Positions 3,641-24,381 of a stretch of DNA of 64,000 nucleotides are shown here, in pieces. The first letter of the stretch is position 1; each line of letters opens with the position of its first letter. Source of the DNA: a virus; the IMG/VR virus record IMGVR_UViG_3300044837_000097, positions 1 to 64,000 of that record; one strand, 5' to 3'. The notes beneath the pieces were generated by a model. It was given only the letters and a program-made list of their open reading frames with translations. It was not told the origin of the DNA and made no database searches. The position numbers and the translations under genes were made by a program.

Positions 3641-3675
3641 GGGGGAGCCGTGAACTCCCCCGACTCTTTCAGACA
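3641..3675 (+). promoter_or_regulatory. degenerate copy of the endonuclease-leader pseudoknot, no downstream ORF
   Basis: GGGGGAG-CCGTGAA-CTCCCCC followed by CTTTCAGAC (pairing partner broken). Confidence 0.6.
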
Positions 3676-3687
3676 TCTAGTTTCAGT

Positions 3688-3766
3688 GGTCGCGTCGGGA
3701 AAACGGGATATCCCAATGGCGTTCTAACCCATACAAAAGTAGGTTCGAATCCTACCGCGACTACCA
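3688..3766 (+). tRNA. tRNA-Arg(TCT)
   Basis: loop GTTCTAA with C:C mismatch closing; canonical T arm; CCA. Confidence 0.75.
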
Positions 3767-3772
3767 TTTTGT

Positions 3773-3847
3773 GGGCTGCTCGTATATCGTATAATGCACA
3801 GCGCTACGAACGCTGGGAGCGGGGTTAGACTCCCCGGTGGCCCTCCA
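3773..3847 (+). tRNA. tRNA-Arg(ACG)
   Basis: CAGCG-CTACGAA-CGCTG, CCA. Confidence 0.88.
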
Positions 3848-3856
3848 AGTTTAATT

Positions 3857-3943
3857 CGCCTGCTGGTGGAATTGGCAGACACGCCGGATTCAAAACCCGG
3901 TGCCCGAGAGGGCGTTAGAGTTCGAATCTCTAGTTGGCGACCA
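3857..3943 (+). tRNA. tRNA-Leu(CAA)
   Basis: loop TTCAAAA, long variable arm, CCA. Confidence 0.9.
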
Positions 3944-3975
3944 TTTTGAAATCCATTGACTACGGTCAGGTGATT

Positions 3976-4395
3976 ATGAACAGCAACCAAAGAAAAGATG
4001 CAACGCTAGGAATGCCTCACGGCACCGCGAGTGGCAGACTTCGGAAGATGATTTTGTTCAATCTTTTGAAAAAGCACGGCGAGAATTCCTGCCATGCTTG
4101 CGGAAAGCCGATTGATTCTGTAGATGCTTTGAGTATTGAGCACAAGAAACCGTGGGAAGGGGTATCGGCTGACTTGTTTTGGGATTTAGAAAACATAGCG
4201 TTTTCGCATCTTCGATGTAATACTCCGAACCGCCCTTACAACAATGGTGGGTGGAACAAGAAACCAGCCCCAGAAGGGATGGCGTGGTGCATCGGACATC
4301 AAGTATTCGAACCAGTCGAAAACTTTTGGAAGAACGCAAGTTTTTGGAATGGTCTTGAGAAGTACTGCAAGACGACCAAGATTCGAAATAGATAA
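3976..4395 (+). CDS. HNH homing endonuclease
   Basis: CHACG..LSIEHKKPW..NIAFSHLRCN. Confidence 0.85.
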   Translation: MNSNQRKDATLGMPHGTASGRLRKMILFNLLKKHGENSCHACGKPIDSVDALSIEHKKPWEGVSADLFWDLENIAFSHLRCNTPNRPYNNGGWNKKPAPEGMAWCIGHQVFEPVENFWKNASFWNGLEKYCKTTKIRNR

Positions 4396-4402
4396 AGATT
4401 TT

Positions 4403-4486
4403 GCGCGTGTGGCGGAAAGGCATACGCAGGGGACTTAAAACCCCCGACCGAAAGGTATGAGGGTCCGACTCCCTCGACGCGCACCA
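4403..4486 (+). tRNA. tRNA-Leu(TAA)
   Basis: loop CTTAAAA, long variable arm, CCA. Confidence 0.9.
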
Positions 4487-4491
4487 AGTTT

Positions 4492-4580
4492 GAGCACTGG
4501 CGGTTCGCCGCGTACTTCAAGACGCGAAGTGCGAATCGTCGGAAAACCTACCTCTCATTGAAGACGAGATTGGATGCTCA
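4492..4580 (+). ncRNA. multi-stem structured RNA, unknown
   Basis: closing stem TGAGCA/TGCTCA enclosing GCGG-TTCG-CCGC and two more stems. Confidence 0.45.
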
Positions 4581-4590
4581 ATTAGTTTAA

Positions 4591-4668
4591 CCCGGATGAT
4601 GCCGAAGTTCACGAGGCGTTCGCCTGCAAAGCGAATTGAAGCAGGTTGGAGTCCTGTCACTGGGTCCA
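4591..4668 (+). tRNA. tRNA-Cys(GCA)
   Basis: TTCGC-CTGCAAA-GCGAA, U73, CCA; bulged acceptor stem. Confidence 0.8.
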
Positions 4669-4759
4669 CTCATGTCGGATACCCGCGCTTGAACAGCGAG
4701 GGAGTAAGGTCCGAATCGTTTAAACGTGCTATGGTAACGAAAACCGGGGCACACATTTT

Positions 4760-5013
4760 TGGTAGCGTAGACTAACGCAGGCCGCAAGGCTTGAGGAAGT
4801 TCCTGCCACATCTCAACATCGAACCGTGGAAGTTGCGGGACGCGTAAGCGTACAAGTAAGCCTTCGTACTGAGCAATCAGTCATTGGAGCGAAGTAACTC
4901 TTTTCGGGTGCAAGTTCAAATAGGACCTGAGTGCTTGTTGAGCATGACGAAGGTCGGGTTGAATGCTTAGACGAATGTTAGTCCACGACAGAAGCAGGGC
5001 TACAGCGCCACCA
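4760..5013 (+). ncRNA. rnpB: RNase P RNA (compact, bacterial type-A-like)
   Basis: P1 TGGTAGCGT/GCGCCACCA; P2 GACTAAC/GTTAGTC; P3 hairpin; CR-I GAGGAAGTTCCTGC; CR-V ACAGAAGCAGGGCTA (P4 pairing); P6 CTCAACA/TGTTGAG; P15/P16 with GGT loop; AGACGAATG before P2 3' strand. Confidence 0.88.
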
Positions 5014-5051
5014 AATAAAAATTTTGATTGCTGGTTTAGCGGCCAGTAATC

Positions 5052-5100
5052 GGGTGGGCGTCCCTAGAAGACGCCCTCCCAACTCTTTCTAGGAGAGCAC
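5052..5100 (+). promoter_or_regulatory. RBS-occluding pseudoknot
   Basis: GGGCGTC-CCTAGAA-GACGCCC; loop complementary to TTCTAGG overlapping SD. Confidence 0.75.
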
Positions 5101-5503
5101 ATGGTTTGTACCAAATGCCGGACGGATAAATCTGTTGATGATTTTTACGATAGACATAAGACTGATAGCAACGTAGGTCGTAAGAAGTCCATTTGTAAAC
5201 TATGTCAACACAAACGAAACAGGGCATCAAACGCTGGCCGTCGTCGTGAACACAGAGATAGATTAGTTGTGATTAAGACAGAGCGCGGTTGTGCGGATTG
5301 TGGTTTTAGAGGATTGTGCCCCGGCGCTGCACTTTCATCACAGAAAACCAGAAGAGAAGAAGTTTGTTATCGCCCATTGTTTGCTGTATTCGTGGGAAAC
5401 GATTTTAGAAGAAGTAGAAAAGTGTGACGTGGTTTGTTCTATTTGTCATACTAAACGACATCAGTGCGCTGCGATTTCGAGCGGCAGAATACCTCCCTCT
5501 TAA
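5101..5503 (+). pseudogene. HNH endonuclease split by +1 frameshift near 5305
   Basis: frame 1 ends its homology at GCADCGF; frame +1 continues EDCAPALHFHH..EVEKCDVVCSICH; paralog of 8505..8855. Confidence 0.8.
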
Positions 5504-5542
5504 GGAGGCTTGGTCTCAGTTCAAGTCTGAGGCGGCGCACCA
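5466..5542 (+). tRNA. tRNA-Lys(CTT)
   Basis: CCTCC-CTCTTAA-GGAGG, CCA. Confidence 0.88.
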
Positions 5543-5549
5543 ATTTTCT

Positions 5550-5626
5550 GAGTCGCGGACGCGAGCGGCAGCGTACTCGCCTTTTAAGCGATGGATGTCC
5601 GAGTTCGAGCCTCGGGCGACTCACCA
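5550..5626 (+). tRNA. tRNA-Lys(TTT)
   Basis: loop CTTTTAA, acceptor GAGTCGC/GCGACTC, CCA. Confidence 0.88.
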
Positions 5627-5741
5627 ATTTTCGAAAGAGACGTGCGCCGCGCACGAGAGCGAAATAATGCGGCGGCGGGCGAATGACGCCCTCAGTCTAC
5701 CAAGACGTTACGAAGAGGTGGAATGCCTCAAAATTTTCTGT

Positions 5742-5817
5742 ACCCGATTATCAAACTGGTCGTATGAACCTCTCCTACAAAGAGGCTGGCAGAGTTCGAT
5801 TCTCTGATTGGGTACCA
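5742..5817 (+). tRNA. tRNA-Val(TAC)
   Basis: CCTCT-CCTACAA-AGAGG, CCA. Confidence 0.85.
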
Positions 5818-5824
5818 ATTTCTG

Positions 5825-5913
5825 TGGGGACGCAGTTCGCGGTAGAGTGAACGCTTGCGATATCCGGTACCGGACTCGTAAGATGGCGAGGGTGAATGAC
5901 CCTTGGGTTCCCA
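5825..5913 (+). ncRNA. cloverleaf tRNA-like RNA without anticodon loop or CCA
   Basis: four fully paired arms; anticodon-position arm capped by palindrome TCCGGTACCGGA. Confidence 0.55.
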
Positions 5914-5919
5914 GATTTT

Positions 5920-6010
5920 TGTCGGTAGCATCAGTATGCAGCGCGGTTTTATAAACCGCGAAGCTCCAGATGAGAGCGCCGAGAGTGGGCAGCACACTCA
6001 CCGACAACCA
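5920..6010 (+). tRNA. atypical tRNA, TAT anticodon (Ile-UAU-like)
   Basis: acceptor TGTCGGT/ACCGACA + ACCA; 4-nt D loop; 6-bp anticodon stem; long variable arm; T loop GGCAGCA. Confidence 0.7.
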
Positions 6011-6012
6011 GT

Positions 6013-6087
6013 GGCCCCGTCATCTAGTGGCGAGGATGCCAGCTTCTCAAGCTGGTCACACGAGTTCGACTCTCGTCGAGGCTACCA
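6013..6087 (+). tRNA. tRNA-Glu(CTC)
   Basis: CCAGC-TTCTCAA-GCTGG, CCA. Confidence 0.9.
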
Positions 6088-6126
6088 AGTTTGAAAATGT
6101 AAGAGGAGCAGTTTTAAGATACTCTC

Positions 6127-6417
6127 ATGGCAAACAACTATAACTCGAATCCGATTTTCATCGACAGCATAATGGCTGCAACCGCGAAGAATAGCGGCGC
6201 GACAACGACCAACCCGTTTCGTATTAAAGAAATTGTGTGGAGTACACCCGGAAGCACCGCAGCAGATTCCGCCGTAATTCAAGACGGCTTGGGTAATGAA
6301 ATTTTCGAACAACAATCAGGTCGAGCAGCACCTGAACTGTTTAATCCGCCAATGGTTATAAATGACTTCAAAGTAACAACTTTGGCAGATGGGCACATTC
6401 TGATTTATTTGGTGTAA
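6127..6417 (+). CDS. hypothetical protein, possibly virion beta-rich protein
   Basis: clean 96-aa ORF between tRNAs. Confidence 0.7.
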   Translation: MANNYNSNPIFIDSIMAATAKNSGATTTNPFRIKEIVWSTPGSTAADSAVIQDGLGNEIFEQQSGRAAPELFNPPMVINDFKVTTLADGHILIYLV

Positions 6418-6451
6418 AGCGCACCGTTATCCGCGCTCTTAGTTTTTCAGT

Positions 6452-6525
6452 GCCGTTATCTGCTATGGGTAGGCAACGAGGCTTTCAACTTCGTAGACAG
6501 GGTTCGAGTCCCTGTAGCGGTACCA
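6452..6525 (+). tRNA. tRNA-Glu(TTC)
   Basis: CGAGG-CTTTCAA-CTTCG, CCA. Confidence 0.88.
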
Positions 6526-6626
6526 ATTTTCGAAACGCGCCCATTCGTAGAGTGGGCTATCCCGGTCACTGCCGGGCGCTACGACGATAGCGTGAGTCGG
6601 TCAATACGACATCGCAAAGTTTCAGT

Positions 6627-6700
6627 GGGGTGCGAGTAGGACGGGAATACGGTTGCCTTGCCCGCATCAAGACGGGGTTCGACTCCCCGGCGCTCCACCA
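6627..6700 (+). tRNA. tRNA-Ala(TGC)
   Basis: G3:U70, A73, CCA; loop CTTGCCC. Confidence 0.8.
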
Positions 6701-6755
6701 AATTATAGGAGAGTGATATGACAGTTATACATTAGGTAACTCGGGAGGGTTATTT

Positions 6756-7118
6756 ATGTCTAAGTCATATCGCAAGCCTTGGGGTACGTATGTTGCTGTA
6801 AAGAGCAGCGCACATGCCGATAAGACGTTCGCCGCTCGCGCAATGCGTAGAGCGCAGAATCAGTCCTTGAGAGAAGCAATTCGTGACGACGACTGGGAAG
6901 GCTGGTTGATTCCCGAACGCTACGAGTGCAGAGACAACGATGTGTGGGGTTGGGGCCGAGACGGCAAGCAGCGTCCGATGTACCCGAGCAATCAGTATAA
7001 CAACCCATACGCATACGTATCCAGTCCGACGTGGATGGATGAAGAACAAATCTTCGCACGCTGGGAAGAACGCAAGAGCCACAACGATGATTTTATGGCC
7101 GATGCTTCTCGTAAATAG
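6756..7118 (+). CDS. hypothetical protein
   Basis: GGAGG RBS; MSKSYRKP..DK..A.R..RR. Confidence 0.75.
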   Translation: MSKSYRKPWGTYVAVKSSAHADKTFAARAMRRAQNQSLREAIRDDDWEGWLIPERYECRDNDVWGWGRDGKQRPMYPSNQYNNPYAYVSSPTWMDEEQIFARWEERKSHNDDFMADASRK

Positions 7119-7126
7119 TTTTCTGT

Positions 7127-7200
7127 TCCTCGCTCGTCCAATGGCAGGACGCATGCTTGATAGGCGTGTTATCGTGGTTCGAGTCCACGGTGAGGAACCA
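7127..7200 (+). tRNA. tRNA-Ile(GAT)
   Basis: loop TTGATAG, CCA. Confidence 0.88.
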
Positions 7201-7284
7201 AGTTCGAACAGACACGGGACCCGCTGTACACGGGTTGTCTGCTTCGGTGAGGAACTCCTGATAGGGCACCGATAAATTTTCTGT

Positions 7285-7361
7285 TGCGGGGTAGAGTTCT
7301 GGTGAACTCCGGTGTCTCATAAGCACACGCAGGCTGGGTTCGATTCCCGCTTCCGCAACCA
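7285..7361 (+). tRNA. tRNA-Met(CAT), initiator-like acceptor stem
   Basis: loop CTCATAA; TGCGGGG..CCGCAACCA; lacks the three G-C anticodon-stem pairs. Confidence 0.8.
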
Positions 7362-7370
7362 ATTTTCTGA

Positions 7371-7444
7371 GCGGGTGTGGTGTAATGGCAGCACCTCATC
7401 CTTCCAAGTTGAGTGTACGGGTCCGAGTCCCGTCGCCCGCTCCA
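7371..7444 (+). tRNA. tRNA-Gly(TCC)
   Basis: loop CTTCCAA, U73, CCA. Confidence 0.88.
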
Positions 7445-7452
7445 AGTTTTGA

Positions 7453-7526
7453 GCCTTGATGGTCTAGTGGTAGAACAGTTCCTTGGTAAGGAACAGGTCG
7501 TGGTTCGATTCCACGTCATGGCTCCA
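7453..7526 (+). tRNA. tRNA-Thr(GGT)
   Basis: GTTCC-TTGGTAA-GGAAC, CCA. Confidence 0.9.
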
Positions 7527-7534
7527 AGTTTTGA

Positions 7535-7608
7535 GCACGGTTAGTTTAGTGGCAGAACTGCCGCCTTGTAAGCGGTTGGCGTGTGTTCGATTCACACCCT
7601 GTGCTCCA
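7535..7608 (+). tRNA. tRNA-Thr(TGT)
   Basis: loop CTTGTAA, CCA. Confidence 0.9.
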
Positions 7609-7616
7609 AGTTCTGA

Positions 7617-7690
7617 GCGATGTTGGTGTAGTGGCAGCACGAGACCTTGCCAAGGTCTAGGTATCGTTTCGATTACGATACGTCGCTCCA
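7617..7690 (+). tRNA. tRNA-Gly(GCC)
   Basis: AGACC-TTGCCAA-GGTCT, U73, CCA. Confidence 0.9.
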
Positions 7691-7705
7691 ATTTTAAGAG
7701 GGACT

Positions 7706-8038
7706 ATGACCGACAACATGAGTGGCTCATCTCAGTTCGCTTTGTTTGCTTTAATCGGCGTCGGAGTTTTGGCCTGCTTAGGCGATGCGTACACAACTTT
7801 AAAGGGCTTCGATGTCGGTTTGGTAGAAGGCAATCCTGTTGCTCGTTGGCTTCAAAAGAAATTGGGATTTTCCTTATCGGCTTTTGTTGCAACTGGATTT
7901 TTTCTTGTATCCACTTCGATAATTTCCGTAGTTAGTCCGACTGCCGCGTTTGCAATAGCAGGTGGAGTCATTGCTCTGGAGACGTTCAATACAGTTCGAA
8001 ACTACTTGTTGTTCAAAAAGTACAGTAAGAAAAAGTAA
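7706..8038 (+). CDS. DUF5658-like membrane protein
   Basis: hydrophobic helices with DxxTT..G..EGNP motif. Confidence 0.7.
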   Translation: MTDNMSGSSQFALFALIGVGVLACLGDAYTTLKGFDVGLVEGNPVARWLQKKLGFSLSAFVATGFFLVSTSIISVVSPTAAFAIAGGVIALETFNTVRNYLLFKKYSKKK

Positions 8039-8062
8039 AGATTGTCAATCCACCAGTTTTGA

Positions 8063-8136
8063 GCACGGTTAGTCCAGTGGCAAGACGCTCCCCTCGTAAG
8101 GCAGAAGCGTTGGTTCGATTCCAGCACTGTGCTCCA
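8063..8136 (+). tRNA. tRNA-Thr(CGT)
   Basis: loop CTCGTAA, CCA. Confidence 0.82.
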
Positions 8137-8144
8137 GTTTCTAC

Positions 8145-8218
8145 TCGCCTTTAGCTCAGTGGTAGAGCGTCCGGCTGTTAACCGGGTGATGTTGGTTCGA
8201 TTCCAGCAGGGTGAGCCA
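8145..8218 (+). tRNA. tRNA-Asn(GTT), second copy
   Basis: canonical D and T arms, loop CTGTTAA, G73. Confidence 0.92.
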
Positions 8219-8223
8219 AGTTT

Positions 8224-8352
8224 CTGTTGTGACGCCGAACGGCAAGGCGCATCTAACATGAGGTAGATTCGAAGGCGGCTTAGTCCGTACGTGCTGACTT
8301 AGACAGCATTCGTCCATCGAGTCTACGTGTGGGTTCGAATCCCATCAACTGA
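8224..8352 (+). ncRNA. tRNA-like RNA with ~60-nt branched insertion, no CCA
   Basis: D arm CGCC-GAACGGCAA-GGCG; T arm GTGGG-TTCGAAT-CCCAT; insert closed by GTAGATTCGA/TCGAGTCTAC. Confidence 0.55.
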
Positions 8353-8362
8353 AAGTTTCAGC

Positions 8363-8438
8363 GAGTCGAAAGTGTTAGTGGCAGCATGTCGGTCTCCAAA
8401 ACCGTACGGTGGGGGTTCAAGTCCCTCTCTTCTCGCCA
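8363..8438 (+). tRNA. tRNA-Trp(CCA)
   Basis: loop CTCCAAA, G73, CCA. Confidence 0.82.
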
Positions 8439-8461
8439 ATTTTTGTACGTACAATTAGAAA

Positions 8462-8504
8462 GAGGGGAGCCGCGAACTCCCCTCAATCCTTTCGCGGGGG
8501 ATTT
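8462..8504 (+). promoter_or_regulatory. RBS-occluding pseudoknot
   Basis: GAGGGGAG-CCGCGAA-CTCCCCTC; loop complementary to TTCGCGG overlapping SD. Confidence 0.75.
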
Positions 8505-8855
8505 ATGAAGTGCGAATATCACGTTTGTAATAAAGAAGCAGGCACAAAAAGATATTGTTCTCGACCATGTAATACAAAACACCGTATTCACAAGGCAAGA
8601 AAAATTCAAAAACAGAAAGCCGTTGAATATCTCGGCGGTAAGTGCTCTCAGTGTGGATACAGCCGATGCATCGAGGCACTTCATTTTCACCACTTGAGAG
8701 ACAAACTTTTTGAAATCGGTAAGATGATTGGCTATCGTCAGGCGTGGTTAAAAATTCAAGCAGAACTAGATAAGTGTGTTTTACTTTGCGCCAACTGCCA
8801 TCATGAGTTTCATTACGGAGGGTTGACAGAACCCGGCATTGTGTCCGCTTGCTAA
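8505..8855 (+). CDS. HNH endonuclease
   Basis: GGKCSQCGY..ALHFHH..ELDKCVLLCANCHHEFH. Confidence 0.88.
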   Translation: MKCEYHVCNKEAGTKRYCSRPCNTKHRIHKARKIQKQKAVEYLGGKCSQCGYSRCIEALHFHHLRDKLFEIGKMIGYRQAWLKIQAELDKCVLLCANCHHEFHYGGLTEPGIVSAC

Positions 8856-8906
8856 GCGGCAGCCACCCGAGAGGGTGTGTAGGTTCAAATCCTACACCTT
8901 CCGCCA
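8817..8906 (+). tRNA. tRNA-Ser(GCT)
   Basis: loop TTGCTAA, long variable arm, G73. Confidence 0.9.
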
Positions 8907-8913
8907 ATTTTAC

Positions 8914-9000
8914 GGATGATTGGGCTTCATGGGGAGCAGCAGTCTTGAAAACTGTCCCGACTGAAAGGTCGAGAGGGTTCGATTCCTTCATCATCCGCCA
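8914..9000 (+). tRNA. tRNA-Ser(TGA)
   Basis: loop CTTGAAA, long variable arm, G73. Confidence 0.88.
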
Positions 9001-9005
9001 TTTAT

Positions 9006-9090
9006 GGAAGACAGTGCGAATGGCTCGCAACGGGTTTCGAACACCCGACCAGCCGCAAGGCTGACAGCTCAATTCTGTTCTCTTCCCCCA
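9006..9090 (+). tRNA. tRNA-Ser(CGA), atypical
   Basis: CGGGT-TTCGAAC-ACCCG, long variable arm; T loop CTCAATT, C73. Confidence 0.65.
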
Positions 9091-9091
9091 T

Positions 9092-9166
9092 CCCGTGCTA
9101 GTGTTAGCGGTAGCACCCCGGCTTGAAACCCCGGTAGGTAAGGTTCGAATCCTTAGAGCGGGACCA
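9092..9166 (+). tRNA. tRNA-Phe(GAA)
   Basis: loop TTGAAAC, CCA; acceptor mismatches. Confidence 0.75.
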
Positions 9167-9175
9167 AGTTTCTGT

Positions 9176-9255
9176 GCCTCGGTAGCTCAGAGCGATAAGA
9201 GCAATCGGTTTTTAACCGATAGGTCGTCCGCGCTGCGTCGGATTCGAGGCTTCCA
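9176..9255 (+). tRNA. tRNA-Lys(TTT)-like with aberrant T arm
   Basis: good D and anticodon arms (ATCGG-TTTTTAA-CCGAT); T loop lacks TTC. Confidence 0.55.
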
Positions 9256-9264
9256 ATTTTCTGT

Positions 9265-9338
9265 TGAGATGTCGTTTAATGGTAGGACAAGCGGCTTTGA
9301 CCCGCTGAATAAAGGTTCGAATCCTTTCGCCTCAACCA
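9265..9338 (+). tRNA. tRNA-Gln(TTG)
   Basis: U1-A72, loop CTTTGAC, CCA. Confidence 0.88.
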
Positions 9339-9436
9339 ATCTCGCGTCGTCGGTCAGGTACTTTGAGAGCGCGGCTAGACGCAATCTCGGAGGAAAAGGA
9401 CCCCATCGCCCTAGTGGGGACGGCGTTTATTTCTGT

Positions 9437-9510
9437 TCGGATGTCTTTCAACGGTAGGAAGCGCGGCTCTGAACCGCGTAATGCACGTTCGAGTCGTGCC
9501 GCCCGAACCA
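9437..9510 (+). tRNA. tRNA-Gln(CTG)
   Basis: U1-A72, CGCGG-CTCTGAA-CCGCG, CCA. Confidence 0.88.
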
Positions 9511-9516
9511 ATCTTA

Positions 9517-9552
9517 AAAGAGCCTCACCTTCCCGGTGGGGCTTTTGTGTTT
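9517..9552 (+). terminator. intrinsic terminator ending tRNA array
   Basis: GAGCCTCACC-TTCCC-GGTGGGGCTT followed by T-rich tail. Confidence 0.7.
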
Positions 9553-9562
9553 CAGGAGACTT

Positions 9563-9925
9563 ATGGCCCCAACAGGCACCGCTGTTTATCAGCAAGCATC
9601 GACGCAGCAAGGCAGCACTCTCGCGACTGCATACACCAACCCCAGTAACCTCGACTTGTTGCAAATCGTTTCGAAGAAGGGTGGCGCGGTTCTACTGAAC
9701 GTGGACCATGCCGGGGCAGTTCACAAGCCAGCCTCGGGAGCGACAGGCGATACTATCATCGGTGATTTTGCCACGAACTTTCAATCAAGTGACAACGCAA
9801 CGGTTGCCCAACTGTTCGCGGACACATTCTCGAATCCCTCCAAGCAGGATATCATCCAAGCCATCAACATTGGTGGAAACGTTCACTACTACCTTGACTT
9901 TCAAGGAGTGGCGCACGGTTCTTAA
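9563..9925 (+). CDS. hypothetical protein with internal duplication (NPSNLDLLQI / NPSKQDIIQA)
   Basis: AGGAG RBS; two similar halves. Confidence 0.75.
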   Translation: MAPTGTAVYQQASTQQGSTLATAYTNPSNLDLLQIVSKKGGAVLLNVDHAGAVHKPASGATGDTIIGDFATNFQSSDNATVAQLFADTFSNPSKQDIIQAINIGGNVHYYLDFQGVAHGS

Positions 9926-10030
9926 TCCCCTGCGCTGAACTTCCATGTGGCAGAGAACCTGTCCACGTTGTGGTAAGCAGATTTTCAAACGCGACCCTTG
10001 GGTCGTAATCGTGTGTTTGTGTGGGTGGAT

Positions 10031-10294
10031 ATGGCACGCATGACAAAGAAACAGTTGGAAGAGAAAATTGCACAGCTTGAGCAGCGCATTATCGAACTGC
10101 AAAGTCAGATGCTTGCTCTTTTTCTTCGTCAGCCAATCGCGCCCCAAGCGCTGCCTACGTTTCAGCCGCCTGTGGTGATTCCGTCGCCGGTGATGCCATA
10201 TCTTCCGCACATCGGAGACTGGCCGGGTCATTCAACAACGATTTGTACTTCATCAAATTTGTCGAGTTGCCTCGAAAGAACGCAGCGCGATTGA
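10031..10294 (+). CDS. hypothetical coiled-coil/Pro-rich protein
   Basis: heptad N-terminus then Pro-rich tail. Confidence 0.55.
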   Translation: MARMTKKQLEEKIAQLEQRIIELQSQMLALFLRQPIAPQALPTFQPPVVIPSPVMPYLPHIGDWPGHSTTICTSSNLSSCLERTQRD

Positions 10295-11004: not shown

Positions 11005-11009
11005 AACTT

Positions 11010-16607: not shown

Positions 16608-16648
16608 AAGTCTTCTTAACACGAGTTGCAACTTGTGTTAAGACTTAA

Positions 16649-16704
16649 GATTAGGGAAGTTGTGCCAGTAACACGGCTTCCTTAATCACTCTTTACTGGA
16701 GAGA
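16649..16704 (+). promoter_or_regulatory. RBS-occluding pseudoknot
   Basis: long stem with loop CCAGTAA complementary to TTACTGG overlapping SD. Confidence 0.75.
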
Positions 16705-17334
16705 ATGATGTCGAAAAACCCTTTATGCAAACACGGCGATTTATATTATTGTAAACAGTGTGGTGGAAAAGGCCGCTGCCCGCATGGGCGAATTCGTTAC
16801 TCTTGCAAAGACTGCAATGTTTTGGGTACGGGCGGCGAGGCTATTTGTGAACATAATAATCGCCGATACCGGTGTGTAGAGTGTAAGGTTTTAGGAGTTG
16901 GTGGAAGTTCTCTGTGTGAACACAATAAAGTTAAACGAAACTGTATTCAATGTGGCGGTGCCGGAATTTGTGAGCACGGCAGGCAGAAAAGTAATTGTAA
17001 GAAATGCAGTGGTTTTGTTCGTTTGGCAAGAACGATGCACCAATCTGCTAAAAAGAGAGCAAAGAAGAAAAGTCTCCCTTTTGAGTTGTCGGTACAAGAT
17101 GTTTTAGATTTAATCGGGAGTGGAATTTGTCCTATTTTTGGTACGCCGTTCGAAACAGGATTTGGTCTTCATAAAACATCGGCATCTCTTGATAGATTTA
17201 AGCCCGAGTTGGGTTACACCAAAGAAAATTGTTCGGTTATTTCCCATTTGGCTAACGCAATGAAGCAGGGCGCAAACGCGGACGAAATTCAGCGTTTGGC
17301 GGATTGGGTGCGCTCAAAAGAAAAGACTCAATAG
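16705..17334 (+). CDS. free-standing HNH-type endonuclease with CxH..CxxC repeats
   Basis: five CxH..CxxC repeats; CPIFG..SLDRF..GYTKENC..AN.MK. Confidence 0.82.
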   Translation: MMSKNPLCKHGDLYYCKQCGGKGRCPHGRIRYSCKDCNVLGTGGEAICEHNNRRYRCVECKVLGVGGSSLCEHNKVKRNCIQCGGAGICEHGRQKSNCKKCSGFVRLARTMHQSAKKRAKKKSLPFELSVQDVLDLIGSGICPIFGTPFETGFGLHKTSASLDRFKPELGYTKENCSVISHLANAMKQGANADEIQRLADWVRSKEKTQ

Positions 17335-17353
17335 GAATATCAGGTGAATCGTA

Positions 17354-19492
17354 ATGGCAGAGTTTGAACCGGAAGTAGTTGGCGCGCGTGACGAAAAAGA
17401 GGCGCAGATTGCTGCGTTGTATCAGGACCCAGCAAACGAAATCACCGCCGAGAACACGTATATCGACAGCGAGACCGGAACCATTCAGCTCAACGACGAA
17501 GCGGCTATTCGCCTCGTATTGACCGACACCGACACGGCTGACAACTTTATCAACGTCAACCAGTGGGCATCAGGCTGGACGATGGCGGACTTGTTGTACC
17601 AGTCCCCGGTATCCGGTGACGGCTCGGGAAACACAACCGACGTTGTGAGTTCTGCCGTTCCGAAGTTCATGGTATCGAATCACATCTCGTCGATTGTGCC
17701 GAAGATTATGGGCGGCATCTTCTACGAGGACCCGTGCTTCATGCTGCGTCCGTCACCGGGCACCACGCCGCAGGTCATCCAAGCGAAGACCGCCGTCTTC
17801 ACTTTTCAATTGAAGGCTATGCGCTACGAAGAAGAAGTAGAGCGCGGACTGGAACAGATGGCGTTGCTTGGCACCGCAATTTGGAAGTGGGGCTATACCG
17901 AGTACGACAAGACGCTCAAGAAATACAAGCGTTACGCCGACCAGCAACAGATTACTGACGGCGGCGAGACGGTGTCGATTGACACGCCGTCGTCGGACGA
18001 CTTCGAGATTGAATTCTACTCGAAGAAGGTCTCTCACCCGTGGATTAAGTTCTGCGACCTCCGCACGGTCCTTGTGGACCCGGGATGCCGCGTGGGCGAC
18101 ATCCGCGCAGCGAAGTGGGTTGTCTACCGCGATTACGCGACGTACGACGACCTGAATAAACTTCGCGGGCTAGAAGGCTACAACATCCCAGAAGAAGATG
18201 TTCTCAAGGCGATGTTCATGCGCCCGGTCAACCCGGGTAAGCCCGACAACATTTCGATGACCCTGCCGGAAGGCATGATGGGCTACTTGCAGCACAGTCG
18301 CCCGAGAAACATCAAGACCTCAGCAGACCCGACTCGCCAACCTCTAGAAATTCTGGAGCGTTGGGATAATGAGAAGGTCATGGTGGTCCTGATTTATAAC
18401 GGTCACAACATTCTTATTCGCAACGAAGCGAATCCTTACGGGAAGATTCCGTTCTTCTCGGCAAACTGGCGCAACATCCCGGACAGCTTCTACGGTCAGG
18501 GTCTTGGCCTGCTAATCGGCAGCGAGCAAATCGTTGAGCAAGGCGTAACAAACCTCGCACTCGACCTGCTTGCCTACTGCTTGCAGCCCGTGGCTCTACG
18601 TAAGAAAGGATTCAACGCACCAACGCAGAACACACGATGGGAACAGGGCGGCATTATCGACGTTGAAGAAGACGTTGAGAAGGCGTTCAAGTTCCTACAA
18701 ATGCCGACGCCTCCGCAAGAAGCGTTTGCCTTCATCCAGCAATCACAGAGCGCGGGCGCTGCCACATCAGGCGCGAACGAGCAGGTTATGCAGGGCGCAG
18801 GGCACGCGGGCATTTCGACGACAGGCATGAGAAGTGGTACTGGCGCGGCGGCTGTTATCAGCGCGAACGCCAGCCGTCTCGACGGCCCAACGGGCCGTTT
18901 CGTCCGCCAAGTGTTCGAGCCGTGGTTGCATCAGATGGACGATTTGAACAACGACCTTCTACCGACTCAAGTCATGAAGGATATTCTTGGCGAAGAGTTG
19001 GGCGGGTCGATTAAGCTGGACCACATCGAGTACAGAAACTCGTCGGTCAAGTATGAAGTTCTGGCGGGAGCCAACCTCGGTGCCAAGAAGGAAATGGCAC
19101 AGGCTCTACCGTTCATCATTCAGTTGATGACCAACCCAGTCTTCGTGAAGAACGCGAACGACGCCGGATACCAGTTCGACGCAATCGCAATCTTCCAAGC
19201 GTTCGTGGACGCAGCAGGCTGGAAGTTCTCTCAGGCTTTTCTACGCAAGATGTCGGACAAAGAAGCCCAGCAGTTTCAGGCGAACAGTCCAGCAGCACTC
19301 GCGCAACAGCAGGCCAAGAACGCACAAGCCGCCGCAGACCAGAAGTTCAAGCAGGAACAGACTCTCGAAAACCAGAAGCAACTCGGCAAAGCCGGAAACG
19401 AGGCGGTACGCGCTTCTATCGAGAAGGCTACACTGCCAGCACTTATGGGTACACCACAAGTCGCTGGTTTTGGCCAAGTCACGGCTTTATAA
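17354..19492 (+). CDS. portal protein
   Basis: 712 aa after terminase; VDP..A.W and PDSFYGQG motifs of podovirus portals. Confidence 0.88.
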   Translation: MAEFEPEVVGARDEKEAQIAALYQDPANEITAENTYIDSETGTIQLNDEAAIRLVLTDTDTADNFINVNQWASGWTMADLLYQSPVSGDGSGNTTDVVSSAVPKFMVSNHISSIVPKIMGGIFYEDPCFMLRPSPGTTPQVIQAKTAVFTFQLKAMRYEEEVERGLEQMALLGTAIWKWGYTEYDKTLKKYKRYADQQQITDGGETVSIDTPSSDDFEIEFYSKKVSHPWIKFCDLRTVLVDPGCRVGDIRAAKWVVYRDYATYDDLNKLRGLEGYNIPEEDVLKAMFMRPVNPGKPDNISMTLPEGMMGYLQHSRPRNIKTSADPTRQPLEILERWDNEKVMVVLIYNGHNILIRNEANPYGKIPFFSANWRNIPDSFYGQGLGLLIGSEQIVEQGVTNLALDLLAYCLQPVALRKKGFNAPTQNTRWEQGGIIDVEEDVEKAFKFLQMPTPPQEAFAFIQQSQSAGAATSGANEQVMQGAGHAGISTTGMRSGTGAAAVISANASRLDGPTGRFVRQVFEPWLHQMDDLNNDLLPTQVMKDILGEELGGSIKLDHIEYRNSSVKYEVLAGANLGAKKEMAQALPFIIQLMTNPVFVKNANDAGYQFDAIAIFQAFVDAAGWKFSQAFLRKMSDKEAQQFQANSPAALAQQQAKNAQAAADQKFKQEQTLENQKQLGKAGNEAVRASIEKATLPALMGTPQVAGFGQVTAL

Positions 19493-19537
19493 ACTAATCA
19501 GGGTGGGGCTTCGGCCCCTCTTATAAGGAAGTACCCA

Positions 19538-19912
19538 ATGGCAGAACGTGAACTACTCGGCGCAACCCTTTCATATGAGGAGCGCATCGCTGTCGCACAG
19601 CTATCGCAGCAACCGGGCTGGCAGATTTTGGTTCGAATGATTGCCGAAGCGTGCCGCAACGCGACAGAAGCAGTCATCAGGTTGGACCCTCAGACAGAGC
19701 GTTATCAGGACAAGGTCGTGGCGCTGCAAACAACCGCACGAGCCATGAACAAGTTTAGTGCGGCGGTCCTTGATTCAGTCAAGGTTCATCAGCGCACCGC
19801 AGTAAGAGAAGCACAGCGTAAGGAAAACCCAGTGGTGGAAGGCGAAGTGCCGAACCGCTTTAAGGGATTCCGTATGCCAACGACACAATCTCCCTCCGAG
19901 GGAGCGAAGTAA
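19538..19912 (+). CDS. small head-module protein following portal
   Basis: position; L..QPGWQIL motif. Confidence 0.65.
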   Translation: MAERELLGATLSYEERIAVAQLSQQPGWQILVRMIAEACRNATEAVIRLDPQTERYQDKVVALQTTARAMNKFSAAVLDSVKVHQRTAVREAQRKENPVVEGEVPNRFKGFRMPTTQSPSEGAK

Positions 19913-19926
19913 GAATCAAATTCTAG

Positions 19927-21228
19927 GTGGACAAAATGAGTTCAATCACTCGCGAGCAGGTCTTGGCTATCAAGACATTTGCCGAAGTTGCAAAGCTGTT
20001 GAAGGAAAGTCCGGACGAGATGCGCCCGATTATGAAGGGTGAAGTTCTAGTCCACATCCAGTCGCTCATCAATGCGCGCAACGTGCAGCTTGCTGGGCAG
20101 GAGACCGAGGTTGACCGCCAACTGGCGTTGAACAACCCTCCTTCGACGGAAGAGTTGGCCGAGCAAGCCGCAGCCGTGGCAGCAGAGTCTGCCGCTGTTG
20201 TGCCGCCTGTCGTCGAGGCGACGCCGCCAGCCACAGTTGACCACACCGAGGAAGACGCGTCGTGGAAGACCGAAGGCGTGACCGTGCAGCGTGATGCGCA
20301 AGGCAAGATTGTTCGCATGGTCCAAGAGTATCAGGTTCGTGATGATGACGACTCTCCGATTGGTCGTCCGACGCACCTTGAGGCCCGTACGCCGTACGAG
20401 TTGCTCTCGAAGCAGCGCGTGGCTCACGAGAACGCGACCCGTGCGTTCCACCGCTTGAAGAAGCAGAAGTTGACCTTTAAGCAGACCGAAGAAAATCGTT
20501 TGCTGACTCCCGCCGAGATTAGTGCGGCAGCAACCAAGGCACTCGAAGGCAAAGACGCCGCCGAGGCCGAGAAGATTGTACGCAGCGTGCTTGAGAACGA
20601 CTTCAAGCAGAAGGAAACCGCGCTGCTAAATGAACGCGAATACGCGGAAGGACAGAAGATTGGAAACACCTTCATCCGCCGCCACTTGCACGACTTCAAT
20701 GCGAACGAAGCAAACTTGAAGGCGCTTGGTGAGTATCTTCGCGAGCATAACATGGAATTTACGTTGGACAACTTGGAGGCCGCATTCATCGACCTCCGAG
20801 ACCAAGGTAATAAACTCGCCGCCGTTAACGCGGCGGTAACAAGACCAGCGGAGTCGGCTAATACCCCGGCAACCGCGACTCCCGCAGCAGCGCCAACGTC
20901 GGAACTCCCGGCGACGGCACCGGCAGCGGCAGTGACACCACCAGTAGTAGCCCAACCAGCGGCTGCCGTAAGCCAGCCAGTAGTTGAAGCAACGGTATCT
21001 ACGCCTGTCGCGCCGAATCCGGCACCAGCGACCCGTAGACCGGGAGTGAACGGGAGCATTACTCCGGGAACGATGAGCGCACATCGTCCGGGAGCAGTGG
21101 ACCCGGCGCTCGCGCGCAAAGAGTTTATGAAGGAACTCAAGGCCATGACATCGGACCAAATTCGCAAGAAGCTAAACGACTCTCAGTTCGTGAAGCAGCT
21201 TGAGACGTACGGCGTCAAGGTTCGCTAA
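19927..21228 (+). CDS. scaffolding protein
   Basis: helical, Ala/Pro-rich linker, short C-terminal helix, directly upstream of capsid. Confidence 0.75.
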   Translation: MDKMSSITREQVLAIKTFAEVAKLLKESPDEMRPIMKGEVLVHIQSLINARNVQLAGQETEVDRQLALNNPPSTEELAEQAAAVAAESAAVVPPVVEATPPATVDHTEEDASWKTEGVTVQRDAQGKIVRMVQEYQVRDDDDSPIGRPTHLEARTPYELLSKQRVAHENATRAFHRLKKQKLTFKQTEENRLLTPAEISAAATKALEGKDAAEAEKIVRSVLENDFKQKETALLNEREYAEGQKIGNTFIRRHLHDFNANEANLKALGEYLREHNMEFTLDNLEAAFIDLRDQGNKLAAVNAAVTRPAESANTPATATPAAAPTSELPATAPAAAVTPPVVAQPAAAVSQPVVEATVSTPVAPNPAPATRRPGVNGSITPGTMSAHRPGAVDPALARKEFMKELKAMTSDQIRKKLNDSQFVKQLETYGVKVR

Positions 21229-21271
21229 AACCCTCTCCCGCAAACGCGGAGATTAGCTTGCAGAGTGAACT

Positions 21272-24200
21272 ATGTCTGGACCAAATCCAGCAGCATCAAA
21301 CGTAGCAAACGTCCTAACGGCGCAAGCCATCATCAAAAAGGTGACACTCTAAAACAACTTGACTGAAAGAGTCAAATGTGCTAGAATAGACAATCTCTTC
21401 TTATTGACTTGAAACCTGAAACGGCAACAAGGCGGAAGCCGAAAGGCACCGTGAGAGACTAAGCGAAGAGACGCCGAAAGGCGATGCGATAGTCCGTTCT
21501 TCCGAGAAAACAATCGGAAGAAGCAAGCAGAAATGACTTGCTCTCTGGAATACACCAGAGTAACAAAACAGCTTCGACAAGGAACTTATCCCTATCGCGT
21601 AAGCGAGCAAGTTCCGAAGGAATGACATGAAGGTACGAAACATCGTTGGACAGACTTTTGGGAGACTGGCCGCCCAGAGTGCCGCAGGCAGTAACAGCAG
21701 GGGGCGAGCACTGTGGTTGTGTCGTTGTTCTTGTGGCAAAGAGAAAATAGTTCTCGGAGACCACTTAACACGAAAGGATGCCAAAGGCGTAAGGTCTTGC
21801 GGATGTTTACAGCAAGAGAATCGTACAAAGCATGGAGCATTTTCTTCAAATTCAGATATAAAATACCACGTTCGTTATTCTCTTCTGGCAGGCTTGAAGG
21901 ACAGAAGCCGCAGAAGGGGCTACGAATCAGACTTAGAAATCTCCGACATACCCGAGATTCCTGAGCTTTGTCCCGTTCTTGGGACTCGTTTGAGTTTGCA
22001 CCGAAACAGCCACGGCAAAGGAAAAGGCAGAGGCAGAAATAGACAAGACGCCTCTCCATCAATAGACAGATTTAATTCAAATCTTCCGTACCTTAAAAAG
22101 TACAAAGATAATCTGTGTATTATTTCGTGGCGAGCAAACAAGCTAAAGTCAGACGCGTCTCTTGTCGAGATGAAGAAAGTGGTGGAATATCTTGAAAATT
22201 GGGGCACTCAGCAGAGTGAAAAATCTTCTCTAATTGACTCGAAACCCAACCAAATCGGGGGCAACGAGGCGGAAGCGAATAGCGCCGTGAGAGACTAATC
22301 GAGAAGACGCCGAGAGGCGATGTAATAGTCCGGTCTAACAAATGAAAATTGTTAGAGGCAGGCGGAAACGACCAGTCCCGTGATGGGCGTCACGGTAACA
22401 TATACGAACCTAAAGGGTAATACAAACGCCTTCGTTGGAGCAGCAGAGCGTCGTGTTCAGGGCCTTCACATGGGCATCAACCGTACGTTCTTCCAGTACA
22501 ACACGCTATCGGGTGACATCACCCAGAAGGCGGACGGTACTGTAGGCTCGCCGGAAACCATCACCCAGTTGAGCGCACCCGCTCAAATCGGTGAGTGGAA
22601 AAACTAAGTTATTCCACTATAAACTCAGCTATATCAAATTAGGTCTTGACAAACCGCAAAGGCTCTTGTTAAGATGAGTTTGAGGAAACTCTAAATGGAA
22701 AAGAAAGCGTGGCCGTATGTGGCCGGATTGCTAGATGCAGAAGGGACAATCCAGATTGGCGTCGATAGAAGGCCAGACGGCGTAATCGGGATGTCGCTTC
22801 AAATTATCATCACTAATACCGACACTCGACTGATGAAGTGGCTTAGTTCAAACTTCGGGGGGAAGTTCTACCGAAGGAAGAACACTCGCGGCTTTTCATC
22901 GAGCGAGTCTCCCGATATTTACTTTTGGTGGCTTTTCGGTAAAGAAAAACAAGAAGCATTTCTTCTCGGTATCCTTCCTTTTCTCAAAACAAAGAAACAA
23001 GAGGCCCTTCTGGGTCTTGAGTTTGTTCGTTTGGTCGGGTGGAATAAAGAAAGAAAACTTCAAATAGCGGAAGAAATGAAAGCCGCTAAGGTTAGTGATG
23101 TAGAGAAAGATAGGCAAGTTAATCTGACAAGGCTTACCCCCGCAGAAGACTCGGCATACGCCGCAGGGCTTTTTGATGGGGATGGTTCAATCGGCTCAAG
23201 CGTAGAGATTACTCAAAAGAGGATTCTTCTGATGAGGTGGCTCTTGATGTGCTTTGGCGGAAGGTTTAACCAACGCAGCATGAACGGCGGTAAAACTTTT
23301 TTCAGGTGGCGTCTCTCAGGAAAGAAAAACAAAGAGTTGTTTCTTCTTGATTTGATTCCTCATCTTGTTATTAAACGGGACAGTGCAAGAGCATTGCTCG
23401 CTTCTCTTAGAGCATCAAAGAGTTCCGCAACGACTGACATGTTGAGTACTTCGCAAGAAGTGAAGACACAGTCTGAACTTACTGGTGACAGTAAGAGCGA
23501 CCCTGTGAAGACACAGGACTCCATAAACAAAAAGTAACTTCGCGAACTTTTCGTCGTTCGCAATTGCAGCAGCAATTGACGAACTCGTTGGCAACAGCGC
23601 CGTGGAACTTGGCTACCAAGCTGGGCAGTCCATCAGCGAGTTGTACAGCGCAGTAGCAGACAGCGCCAACTCGGTTGACTCACAGGTTAACCAGTCATCG
23701 TTGCTTGCATCTCCGTACACGCTTGACCTTGGCACCATCCGTGAGTTGAAGCAGCAGCTTGTTTCAAAGAACGTGTTGCCGTGCAAGCGCGGTATGTTCT
23801 TGGGCGCAATTAGCCCGAACGTGTTGGGCGACATTTACAATGCAACGACTGTGAACAACAGCATCGTTGACTTGTGGAAGTACGAGAACATGGAGAAGTA
23901 CGACCAGATGGCAGGTTCGGACCAGAACAAGGTCATCGTGTTGCCGGGTACCAACATCGGCTTCATGCAGACCCCGTTCGTGACCACGACTGCTAACTAC
24001 CAGTCAACAGGCAAAATTGGCTACCGCACATACGTGTTCGGTAACTACGCCATGATTGGTGTGTGGTTGCAGGTACCGGGCGACACCGACCTTGACGACG
24101 GTGACTGGAAGACGATTGACTGCCGCGTCGTAACCGACGCGCCGATGTCATCGTTTGACCCAGTTTCGACGATTGGCGGATGGTGTTCGTACAAATTTCA

Positions 24201-24282
24201 TCAAACCGTTACGTTGCCACCGGCAACGGGAACAAACACGCAGCGTATCCGCTACGTAGATTCGGTTCCGGCCATTCAGTAA
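21272..24282 (+). CDS. major capsid protein, spliced: exons 21272-21333, 21572-21593, 22407-22600, 23535-24282 (341 aa)
   Basis: joined exons give one open 1026-nt frame MSGPNP..AIIFDKELIPNLKG..QIGEWNNFANFSS..ELGYQAGQS..VPAIQ; position after scaffold. Confidence 0.88.
21334..21571 (+). mobile_element. group I intron 1 (ORF-less, 238 nt)
   Basis: P1 with U:G (TCAT|C / GGTGA), P3 CTCTTC/GAAGAG, P7 GACTA/TAGTC, terminal G. Confidence 0.9.
21359..21387 (+). promoter_or_regulatory. sigma70 promoter inside intron 1
   Basis: TTGACT-17nt-TAGAAT with extended -10 TG. Confidence 0.6.
21594..22406 (+). mobile_element. group I intron 2 with endonuclease ORF in P1 loop
   Basis: exon CCCT|A pairs with TGGGG at ~22200; P2 CACTC/GAGTG; P3 CTTCTC/GAGAAG; P7 GACTA/TAGTC; terminal G. 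Confidence 0.88.
21627..22298 (+). CDS. intron-encoded HNH-type homing endonuclease
   Basis: GQTFGRL..WLCRCSCG..SCGC N-domain; CPVLG..SIDRF..NLCIISWRANKLK. Confidence 0.88.
   Translation: MKVRNIVGQTFGRLAAQSAAGSNSRGRALWLCRCSCGKEKIVLGDHLTRKDAKGVRSCGCLQQENRTKHGAFSSNSDIKYHVRYSLLAGLKDRSRRRGYESDLEISDIPEIPELCPVLGTRLSLHRNSHGKGKGRGRNRQDASPSIDRFNSNLPYLKKYKDNLCIISWRANKLKSDASLVEMKKVVEYLENWGTQQSEKSSLIDSKPNQIGGNEAEANSAVRD
22601..23534 (+). mobile_element. group I intron 3 with LAGLIDADG ORF in P6
   Basis: IGS GTTATTCCAC complementary to ligated exons GTGGAA|TAAC; P3 ACTCAGC/GTTGAGT; P6 GGAAACTCT/AGAGTTCC; P7 GACTG/CAGTC; terminal G. Confidence 0.82.
22646..22675 (+). promoter_or_regulatory. sigma70 promoter inside intron 3
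   Basis: TTGACA-18nt-TAAGAT with TG extension, 20 nt before ORF. Confidence 0.6.
22695..23537 (+). CDS. double-motif LAGLIDADG homing endonuclease
   Basis: YVAGLLDAEG and YAAGLFDGDG. Confidence 0.92.
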   Translation: MEKKAWPYVAGLLDAEGTIQIGVDRRPDGVIGMSLQIIITNTDTRLMKWLSSNFGGKFYRRKNTRGFSSSESPDIYFWWLFGKEKQEAFLLGILPFLKTKKQEALLGLEFVRLVGWNKERKLQIAEEMKAAKVSDVEKDRQVNLTRLTPAEDSAYAAGLFDGDGSIGSSVEITQKRILLMRWLLMCFGGRFNQRSMNGGKTFFRWRLSGKKNKELFLLDLIPHLVIKRDSARALLASLRASKSSATTDMLSTSQEVKTQSELTGDSKSDPVKTQDSINKK

Positions 24283-24333
24283 CTAAATAGTTACTATGAC
24301 GAACTTCCCACGGGCTTATAATCCGTGGCTTAC

Positions 24334-24381
24334 TAATCAGGGGGAGCCTCGAACTCCCCCAGATTATCTTTCGAGGAGATT
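24334..24381 (+). promoter_or_regulatory. RBS-occluding pseudoknot
   Basis: GGGGGAG-CCTCGAA-CTCCCCC; loop complementary to TTCGAGG overlapping SD GAGGAG. Confidence 0.78.

Follow-up and report, generated by a model that had tools for sequence, protein, structure and literature searches.

What governs the translation of mobile nuclease genes when they lie in the tRNA array of a phage or between its terminase and portal genes? The question is raised by the first 64,000 nucleotides (nt) of the IMG/VR virus record IMGVR_UViG_3300044837_000097 (this whole stretch is referred to as the window), where four nuclease-type genes are each preceded by a leader of about 45 to 55 nt, in which a G+C-rich hairpin (H1) is followed by a short one (H2) ahead of the start codon. 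The initial annotation of this DNA had described a pseudoknot in these leaders, with the H1 loop pairing to a stretch that runs into the Shine-Dalgarno (SD) sequence. This pairing holds; the description was incomplete, as the CT...AG flanks of the downstream stretch pair with each other into the second covarying hairpin, H2. We propose that the leader, which recurs in related phages, is a putative translational brake that, judging from its sequence, probably masks the SD inside a mobile nuclease cassette.

The source phage is uncultured and of soil type. Its contig has 82,715 base pairs (bp) and is estimated to be 81% complete. The window is 53% G+C. Among its genes are 31 for tRNAs, one for a terminase and one for an SU10-type portal. 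Cultured relatives are all distant: the best match of the terminase is that of Tunturiibacter phage Tunturi_3, a phage of Acidobacteria, with 24.7% identity, and no near match to the DNA running from terminase to portal was found among cultured phages. The twin-hairpin leader was not found in Tunturi_3, where the top model match reached only an expectation value (E) of 0.16, and two leaders compared by BLAST with 50,697 phage records gave no relevant match, BLAST being weak for queries of 50 nt.

Intact leaders and a relic in the window

The anatomy of the leader was drawn from 58 distinct intact members carrying 28 different loops. H1 is a stem of 6 to 16 bp (median 9) that closes a 7-nt loop of the CC-NNN-AA type. 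H2 is a stem of 2 to 9 bp (median 5). Its loop, TT-N'N'N'-GG, matches the H1 loop by exact Watson-Crick complementarity and includes the two leading G of the SD; the complementarity is perfect over 6 to 7 bp in all of these members. The SD, an invariant GGAG, spans the H2 loop and the H2 3' arm. Its 3' half (the AGAG after the GG in GGAGAG) pairs with the CUCU-like H2 5' arm and lies inside the H2 stem in 58/58 members, and where H2 is long the AUG is within or adjoins the stem. The SD is strong and its spacing to the start codon is optimal, with 3 to 13 nt (median 8) between the end of the H2 loop element and the start codon, which is ATG in 55/58. The gap between H1 and H2 is 0 to 11 nt; when the longest possible H1 and H2 are drawn, the linker is at most 2 nt in 37/58 members and at most 0 nt in 21/58. 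Leaders start 0 to 20 nt past a tRNA, an RNase P-like RNA, the end of a gene or a promoter-like box, and no open reading frame (ORF) was found ahead of the nuclease start within their 45-55 nt. The position of the element relative to the SD and ATG is constant, and it is always on the coding strand.

Re-reading the letters of the window returned the four intact copies and a relic with all sequences and coordinates as the initial annotation gave them. They are listed here with the scores of two covariance models, R1 and R2, which are built from the nested helices H1 and H2 alone.

3641..3671, plus strand: relic leader in the tRNA-Leu/tRNA-Arg spacer; 31.7 bits with R1, 25.4 bits with R2
5056..5100, plus strand: leader copy 1; 51.4 bits with R1, 49.7 bits with R2; ATG at 5101
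5056-5062/5070-5076, plus strand: H1 of copy 1, GGGCGTC/GACGCCC, with loop CCTAGAA at 5063-5069
5077-5082, plus strand: linker of copy 1
5083-5086/5094-5097, plus strand: H2 of copy 1, CTCT/AGAG, with loop TTCTAGG at 5087-5093
5092-5095, plus strand: SD of copy 1, GGAG
8462..8504, plus strand: leader copy 2; 53.5 bits with R1; ATG at 8505
8462-8469/8477-8484, plus strand: H1 of copy 2, GAGGGGAG/CTCCCCTC, with loop CCGCGAA at 8470-8476
8485-8490/8498-8503, plus strand: H2 of copy 2, AATCCT/GGGATT, with loop TTCGCGG at 8491-8497; zero linker to H1
16616..16644, plus strand: promoter-like TTAACA-17-TAAGAC just 5' of copy 3 (by eye)
16649..16704, plus strand: leader copy 3; 40.1 bits with R1; ATG at 16705
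16649-16664/16672-16687, plus strand: H1 of copy 3, 10-16 bp, core from 16654, with loop CCAGTAA at 16665-16671
16689-16692/16700-16703, plus strand: H2 of copy 3, CTCT/AGAG, with loop TTACTGG at 16693-16699
24340..24381, plus strand: leader copy 4; 46.2 bits with R1; ATG at 24382
24340-24346/24354-24360, plus strand: H1 of copy 4, GGGGGAG/CTCCCCC, with loop CCTCGAA at 24347-24353
24361-24365, plus strand: linker of copy 4
24366-24369/24377-24380, plus strand: H2 of copy 4, ATCT/AGAT, with loop TTCGAGG at 24370-24376

The relic keeps an intact H1 (3641-3661) with the loop CCGTGAA (3648-3654). Its downstream partner is shortened to CTCTTTCA and the downstream element truncated to ACTCTTTCA (3663-3671), where intact GTG-type relatives of the relic have CTCTTTCACGGAG. 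The notion of a fifth copy that lacks both a pairing partner and an ORF is therefore borne out, and this copy lacks an SD as well.

The plus strand of the window holds 281 CCNNNAA sites; nine of them cap stems of at least 5 bp, and the four sites with an exact reverse complement within 60 nt are all among these nine. No additional copy was found when the whole genome was searched by pattern and by R1. In none of 100 first-order Markov genomes did the full signature (a CCNNNAA loop, a stem of at least 5 bp, its loop complement no more than 30 nt away and, 3 to 16 nt later, an ATG) occur (mean 0.000, maximum 0), compared to the four observed. The twin-hairpin observation is confirmed, far above chance.

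Reading H1 as an intrinsic terminator was rejected, as no U-tract follows H1 and terminator-like calls fell on the minus strand only. At the promoter-like site upstream of copy 3, relatives carry TTGACA-17- followed by TAAGAT, TATGAT or TAAGGT (by eye); a promoter scan beside copies 1 and 2 found no promoter.

Covariation of the loops and stems

Outside the window, the loops were followed in searches that are blind to their complementarity, where the chance of a fully complementary triplet is 1/64 per match. With the pattern GGGAGCCNNNAACTCCCN{3,28}CTTTNNNGG, the triplet was complementary in 7/8 matches in viral contigs and in 19/48 in metagenome contigs, and in 0/17 among one genome per each of 185,579 cellular species. 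When a GTG/CAC stem was added to this pattern, all 30 of the matches in viral contigs were complementary, with 12 different triplets. Two loose patterns were set aside as uninformative: GGGGAGCCNNNAACTCCCC returned mostly an unrelated CCAAAAA terminator family (complement in 5/118 among the matches listed), and GAGCCNNNAACTCN{4,28}CTTTNNNGG returned chance matches (3/118 among the matches listed, versus 1.8 expected).

The covariance models know nothing of the loop-loop pairing either. R2, run over 31 motif-bearing viral records, gave 51 matches, including 17 secondary ones picked by no pattern, of which 16 had a perfect loop complement. The lone exception, L399, with one loop mismatch and ATA replacing ATG, is a decayed relic. 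A motif-blind census was then taken of 24 phage contigs selected by portal similarity alone, using a covariance-model cut-off of E up to 1e-4. At least one match was present in 15/24 contigs and in 6/6 of those at least 90% complete, and the loops were perfectly complementary in 32/32 matches (30 scripted; L513 and L520 by eye). Compensated changes reach loop positions 2 to 7, as in CCGTAAT/ATTACGG, CTATGAA/TTCATAG, CCTAAAC/GTTTAGG and CCAGATA/TATCTGG, and there are 6-nt loops too; the only near-invariant loop base is the C opposite the GG of the SD. The covarying loop-to-SD pairing, first noticed among the copies of the window, is thus found well outside it by pattern searches, R2 matches and the portal-selected census alike, and the covariance modelling envisaged in the initial annotation has, on phage genomes, yielded further copies with the loop complementarity kept.

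Two other readings of the variable loops were dropped. A codon/anticodon reading of the triplet finds no pattern, and the triplets include TAG. Loops as 'addresses' that avoid cross-talk within a genome would fit the absence of shared loops (0/37 pairs, P = 0.23; 0/71 pairs, P = 0.11); these values are not significant and are confounded by orthology.

Stem covariation was measured in an alignment (A3) of 46 distinct sequences, which were picked for perfect loop pairing, so that its loop-loop figures are not independent; H2 was never a selection criterion. Every H1 cell (100%) was paired, and at 5/6 pairs both sides had changed. The five inner pairs of H2 were standard in 36, 43, 44, 46 and 46 of the 46 sequences, with exchanges such as CG 29 / UA 10 / AU 3 and UA 25 / CG 13 / UG 5. 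None of 500 shuffles matched any observed covariation measure, and sliding the partners by 1 to 3 columns lowered pairing from 95% to 44-56%. H1, H2 and the loop-loop helix all covary.

The stems contain 17 G.T versus 6 A.C pairs, and for this reason RNA of the plus strand is mildly favoured. This bears on an explanation at the level of DNA, in which the element would be a set of interleaved inverted repeats for homing, recombination or protein binding, or a quasi-palindrome whose copies are kept alike by template-switch correction. The element is indeed almost symmetric under reverse complement, its minus strand being the mirror image, and it is located at the cassette boundary with perfect DNA palindromes just upstream. 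However, its position is fixed with respect to the SD and ATG and always on the coding strand, its stems tolerate G.T more than A.C, and its arms are just 7 nt and covary freely at 5-6 positions. We consider a DNA signal very improbable.

The nuclease genes behind the leader and their mobility

The genes that start directly after the four intact leaders are the following.

5101..5427, plus strand: HNH-type nuclease ORF, 108 amino acids (aa) as read, frameshifted; phrog_2255, E 2.9e-8, residues 2-70 only
8505..8855, plus strand: HNH endonuclease, 116 aa; phrog_2255, E 2.2e-22
16705..17334, plus strand: HNH-type endonuclease, 209 aa, between the terminase large subunit and portal genes; phrog_3322, E 4.3e-31
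24382..24810, plus strand: Endonuclease VII-type gene, 142 aa; PF02945, E 2.6e-18

Three of these (8505, 16705 and 24382) are intact. The gene at 5101 had been listed as a nuclease gene like the others, and it does begin as an HNH-type ORF matching phrog_2255; its frame, in contrast, is not intact, since the HNH motif (HFHH...CSICH) lies in the +1 frame, which runs to about 5503. The leader of this gene is intact, and the frameshift could be due to decay, an assembly error or recoding. Outside the window, 31/39 downstream proteins match nuclease families, namely several HNH PHROG families, Endonuclease_7, GIY-YIG with NUMOD3, and AP2-HNH. Overall, nucleases (HNH, EndoVII-type or GIY-YIG) are found downstream in 35/43 cases. 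The leader is associated with nuclease genes and co-inherited with them.

Co-inheritance is seen in the relative G001, the portal of which is 80% identical to that of the window. The terminase stop and the portal ATG overlap in G001, whereas about 750 bp are inserted there in the window, made up of a promoter-like box, leader copy 3 and its nuclease gene. At the copy-1 site, G001 is without leader and gene alike, and at its position 6249 a different leader and gene follow a tRNA. An ORF-less relic leader lies in the same tRNA-Leu/tRNA-Arg spacer of both phages, and the two relics are of different types. Judging from this comparison, the leader and the nuclease gene are gained and lost as one unit. 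The portability claimed for the motif is likewise upheld, as the leader precedes HNH, EndoVII-type and GIY-YIG genes across several phage lineages: portal identities of the carriers range from 80% down to 23%, and in two nearly complete carrier genomes a portal homologue is not detectable. The densest array seen is in G053, a 27,825-bp fragment of a related phage, with seven leader copies and seven different loops.

Several features were observed upstream of the leaders. Just 5' of H1, tRNA 3' ends are followed at many loci by the perfect palindrome TTTTGTAC-GTACA(A) (3621-3633 and 8441-8454 in the window). In relatives it becomes GATG-CATC or GTAG-CTAC and is still palindromic, central four bases included, and it is also present at a G001 site without a nuclease gene; its role may be that of a homing target or of a processing signal. 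Some members (24308-24328 in the window; L241, L126, L392) have, 10-20 nt 5' of H1, a hairpin whose loop, CTTATAAYC, is conserved and includes a TATAAT-like box, and whose stems covary (CCACGG/CCGTGG, GTTCCG/CGGAAC, CACAG/CTGTG). Finally, an RNase P RNA-like gene occupies 4759-5018 of the window (plus strand), in the tRNA array just 5' of copy 1; it matches RF00010 with 84.9 bits (E 2.5e-25), the gathering score being 100, and has counterparts in the relatives L257 (298-619; 87.3 bits) and L250 (633-971; 62.7 bits).

The window has further nuclease-type genes. An HNH gene at 3977-4395, directly 3' of tRNA-Leu, has a plain GGTGA SD in place of a twin-hairpin leader. A LAGLIDADG ORF at 22695-23537 sits in an insertion of about 930 bp (22607-23536) that splits a frame which is continuous (330 aa) in G001, and there is a weak group I intron match at 23394-23495 (E 0.007); the ORF probably encodes a homing endonuclease carried by an intron of a structural gene. 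It has a different leader (22640-22694): TTGACA-17-TAAGAT is followed by the hairpin GAGTTT-GAGG-AAACTC, with the SD in the tetraloop (by eye). The predicted transcript start falls inside the 5' arm of this hairpin, as in T4-type control (by eye).

A putative brake, its alternatives and known systems

Masking of the ribosome site is proposed because a strong, optimally spaced SD has a conserved partner for every base. Each SD nucleotide has a possible partner: the H1 loop can take up the GG, and the H2 5' arm the AG(AG). Such masking would reduce 30S binding and keep nuclease synthesis low in whatever transcript the cassette enters. The loop-loop helix and the H2 stem would probably represent alternative 'off' states: an H-type pseudoknot, composed of H1 and the loop-loop helix with the H2 5' arm as the crossing loop; or two stacked hairpins.

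Free energies computed with ViennaRNA for ten members are -12.6 to -22.6 kcal/mol for H1, +0.2 to -9.7 for H2 and -7.2 to -10.3 for the loop duplex; the nested minimum-energy fold lengthens H2 by two U.G pairs, leaving a triloop. When the H-type pseudoknot is fitted with the full H1 stem, loop 3 has 5-7 nt in 37/58 members and 2-4 nt in three, a small length for stems of 8-16 bp, except where the lower stem frays. If the loops kiss, the stems would be expected to stack at opposite ends of the loop-loop helix, parting the H1 3' end from the H2 5' end by about 18 bp (about 50 Å). As linkers of 0-2 nt cannot bridge this distance, the three helices probably do not all form in one molecule. Probably, the pseudoknot and the rod of H1 and H2 are alternative states, or the loops kiss in trans.

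In the latter case, H1 and H2 would form a stacked rod with complementary 7-nt loops at both ends, and abundant transcripts would chain head to tail, burying one another's SDs. The abutting of H1 and H2 in most members (linker at most 2 nt in 37/58) and the covariation of all three helices are consistent with this, and loop complementarity is perfect even where H2 (-8.4 to -9.7 kcal/mol) rivals the loop duplex (-7.3 to -9.0 kcal/mol). Copies inside one genome share no loop either (0/71 pairs); however, this result is not significant (P = 0.11) and is confounded, as orthologous copies share loops by descent, and intramolecular pairing is kinetically favoured wherever it is sterically possible. 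We regard kissing between molecules as unlikely. If true, it would make the leader a self-associating RNA, with translation of the nuclease dropping as its own transcript rises: a protein-free, dose-sensing brake of a selfish gene.

Several points weigh against the brake within one molecule. A full intramolecular kissing complex looks sterically impossible with the linkers just given (at most 0 nt in 21/58), and the pseudoknot requires an open H2, yet H2 covaries. In the window copies, H2 alone is weak (+0.2 to -4.1 kcal/mol). The tie to nucleases drawn in the initial annotation stands for the 35 of 43 downstream genes and is not exclusive: HTH_36 genes follow the leader in L239, L251 and L270 (the L270 match being weak), and five members precede genes matching no known family. 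Conversely, two nuclease-type genes of the window, HNH at 3977-4395 and LAGLIDADG at 22695-23537, are without the leader. A hairpin-loop pseudoknot by a ribosome binding site can also activate translation, as in the replication genes of IncB/IncI-alpha plasmids.

The leader might accordingly be no brake at all. It could be a translational activator, in which the pseudoknot opens H2 and presents the start region as in plasmid repZ/repA, or a 5'-terminal stabiliser or insulator of the cassette mRNA. In several members, promoter-like -10 boxes end about 4-9 nt 5' of H1 (by eye), which would make H1 5'-terminal; the pseudoknot and H2 look mutually exclusive, and the SD and its spacing are optimal. 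However, the pseudoknot itself occupies the first two G of the SD, the 45-55 nt hold no leader peptide ORF, and the promoter scan was negative beside copies 1 and 2. These roles seem rather unlikely to us, and a brake that masks the SD is the reading we retain.

If the SD-masking brake is right, homing-endonuclease cassettes bring their own standard translational throttle, which would help explain how they settle harmlessly between essential genes and in tRNA arrays. The leader could then act as a compact, addressable translation insulator. It also poses a folding puzzle, with three covarying helices apparently unable to coexist, and its 45-55 nt are small enough for direct reporter and structural work.

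No Rfam 15 family overlaps the leaders (E up to 10 for 3400-9000 and 16400-24600 of the window; E up to 5 for 12 related loci), and at the gathering threshold only tRNAs are called in the window. The view that the motif is not a named family is in line with this, and full-text literature searches found no description of the twin-hairpin fold. A published catalogue with over 10,000 candidate RNAs of viruses includes unnamed ones directly 5' of HNH (DNAVirus_1007), Endonuclease_7 (DNAVirus_7989) and GIY-YIG (DNAVirus_1290) genes, and its main text describes no motif of HNH or homing-endonuclease genes (Fremin et al. 2023, PMC10690425). The leader is set beside these candidates by neighbouring gene only, and may overlap with them. 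Homing-endonuclease cassettes carry a widespread twin-hairpin leader that, apart from a possible overlap with these candidates, is uncatalogued. If this is true, it represents a large structured-RNA class outside Rfam in which covariation is unusually clean (each of the 28 loop variants is perfectly compensated) and which is common to three or more nuclease families of unrelated structure and to several lineages of phages.

Among known systems, the PeSL cassettes of T4-type phages consist of a terminator-like stem-loop and an early promoter, and flank and travel with optional genes. The leader is likewise a short regulatory module moving with optional genes; PeSL elements, in contrast, are not known to have loop-to-SD pairing. 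In repZ/repA of IncI-alpha/IncB plasmids, the loop of an upstream hairpin pairs by the SD with bases otherwise held in a second hairpin, which activates translation, and this control requires leader-peptide translation and an antisense RNA. The present leader differs in having no leader ORF and no known antisense RNA, and in that the SD itself is paired.

In the cobalamin riboswitch, a loop (L5) kisses the loop (L13) of a ribosome-binding-site hairpin, and a perfectly paired kissing loop represses without ligand (PMC5028336). The likeness is in the loop-loop pairing onto a hairpin that bears the ribosome binding site. Unlike the riboswitch, the leader has no aptamer (no Rfam cobalamin match) and is 45-55 nt in all; its loops are perfect 7-bp complements without bulged purines, and its linker is mostly 0-2 nt, compared to 7 nt plus a junction in the riboswitch.

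A close parallel in function would be the established control of homing endonuclease genes in T-even phages. I-TevI, I-TevII, I-TevIII, segB and Aeh1 mobE have hairpins that sequester the ribosome binding site in highly transcribed operons, and segB is located in a tRNA cluster (PMC2988022, PMC3014915, PMC2330249). There, as here, a cis-acting RNA structure pairs with the SD of a mobile nuclease gene. However, the T-even hairpins are, in those accounts, single and gene-specific, and are relieved by a late promoter inside the hairpin, whereas the promoter-like boxes seen by eye 5' of H1 would leave H1 intact; and in place of one hairpin for each gene, genes of many nuclease families share a single covarying fold of two hairpins whose loops are complementary.

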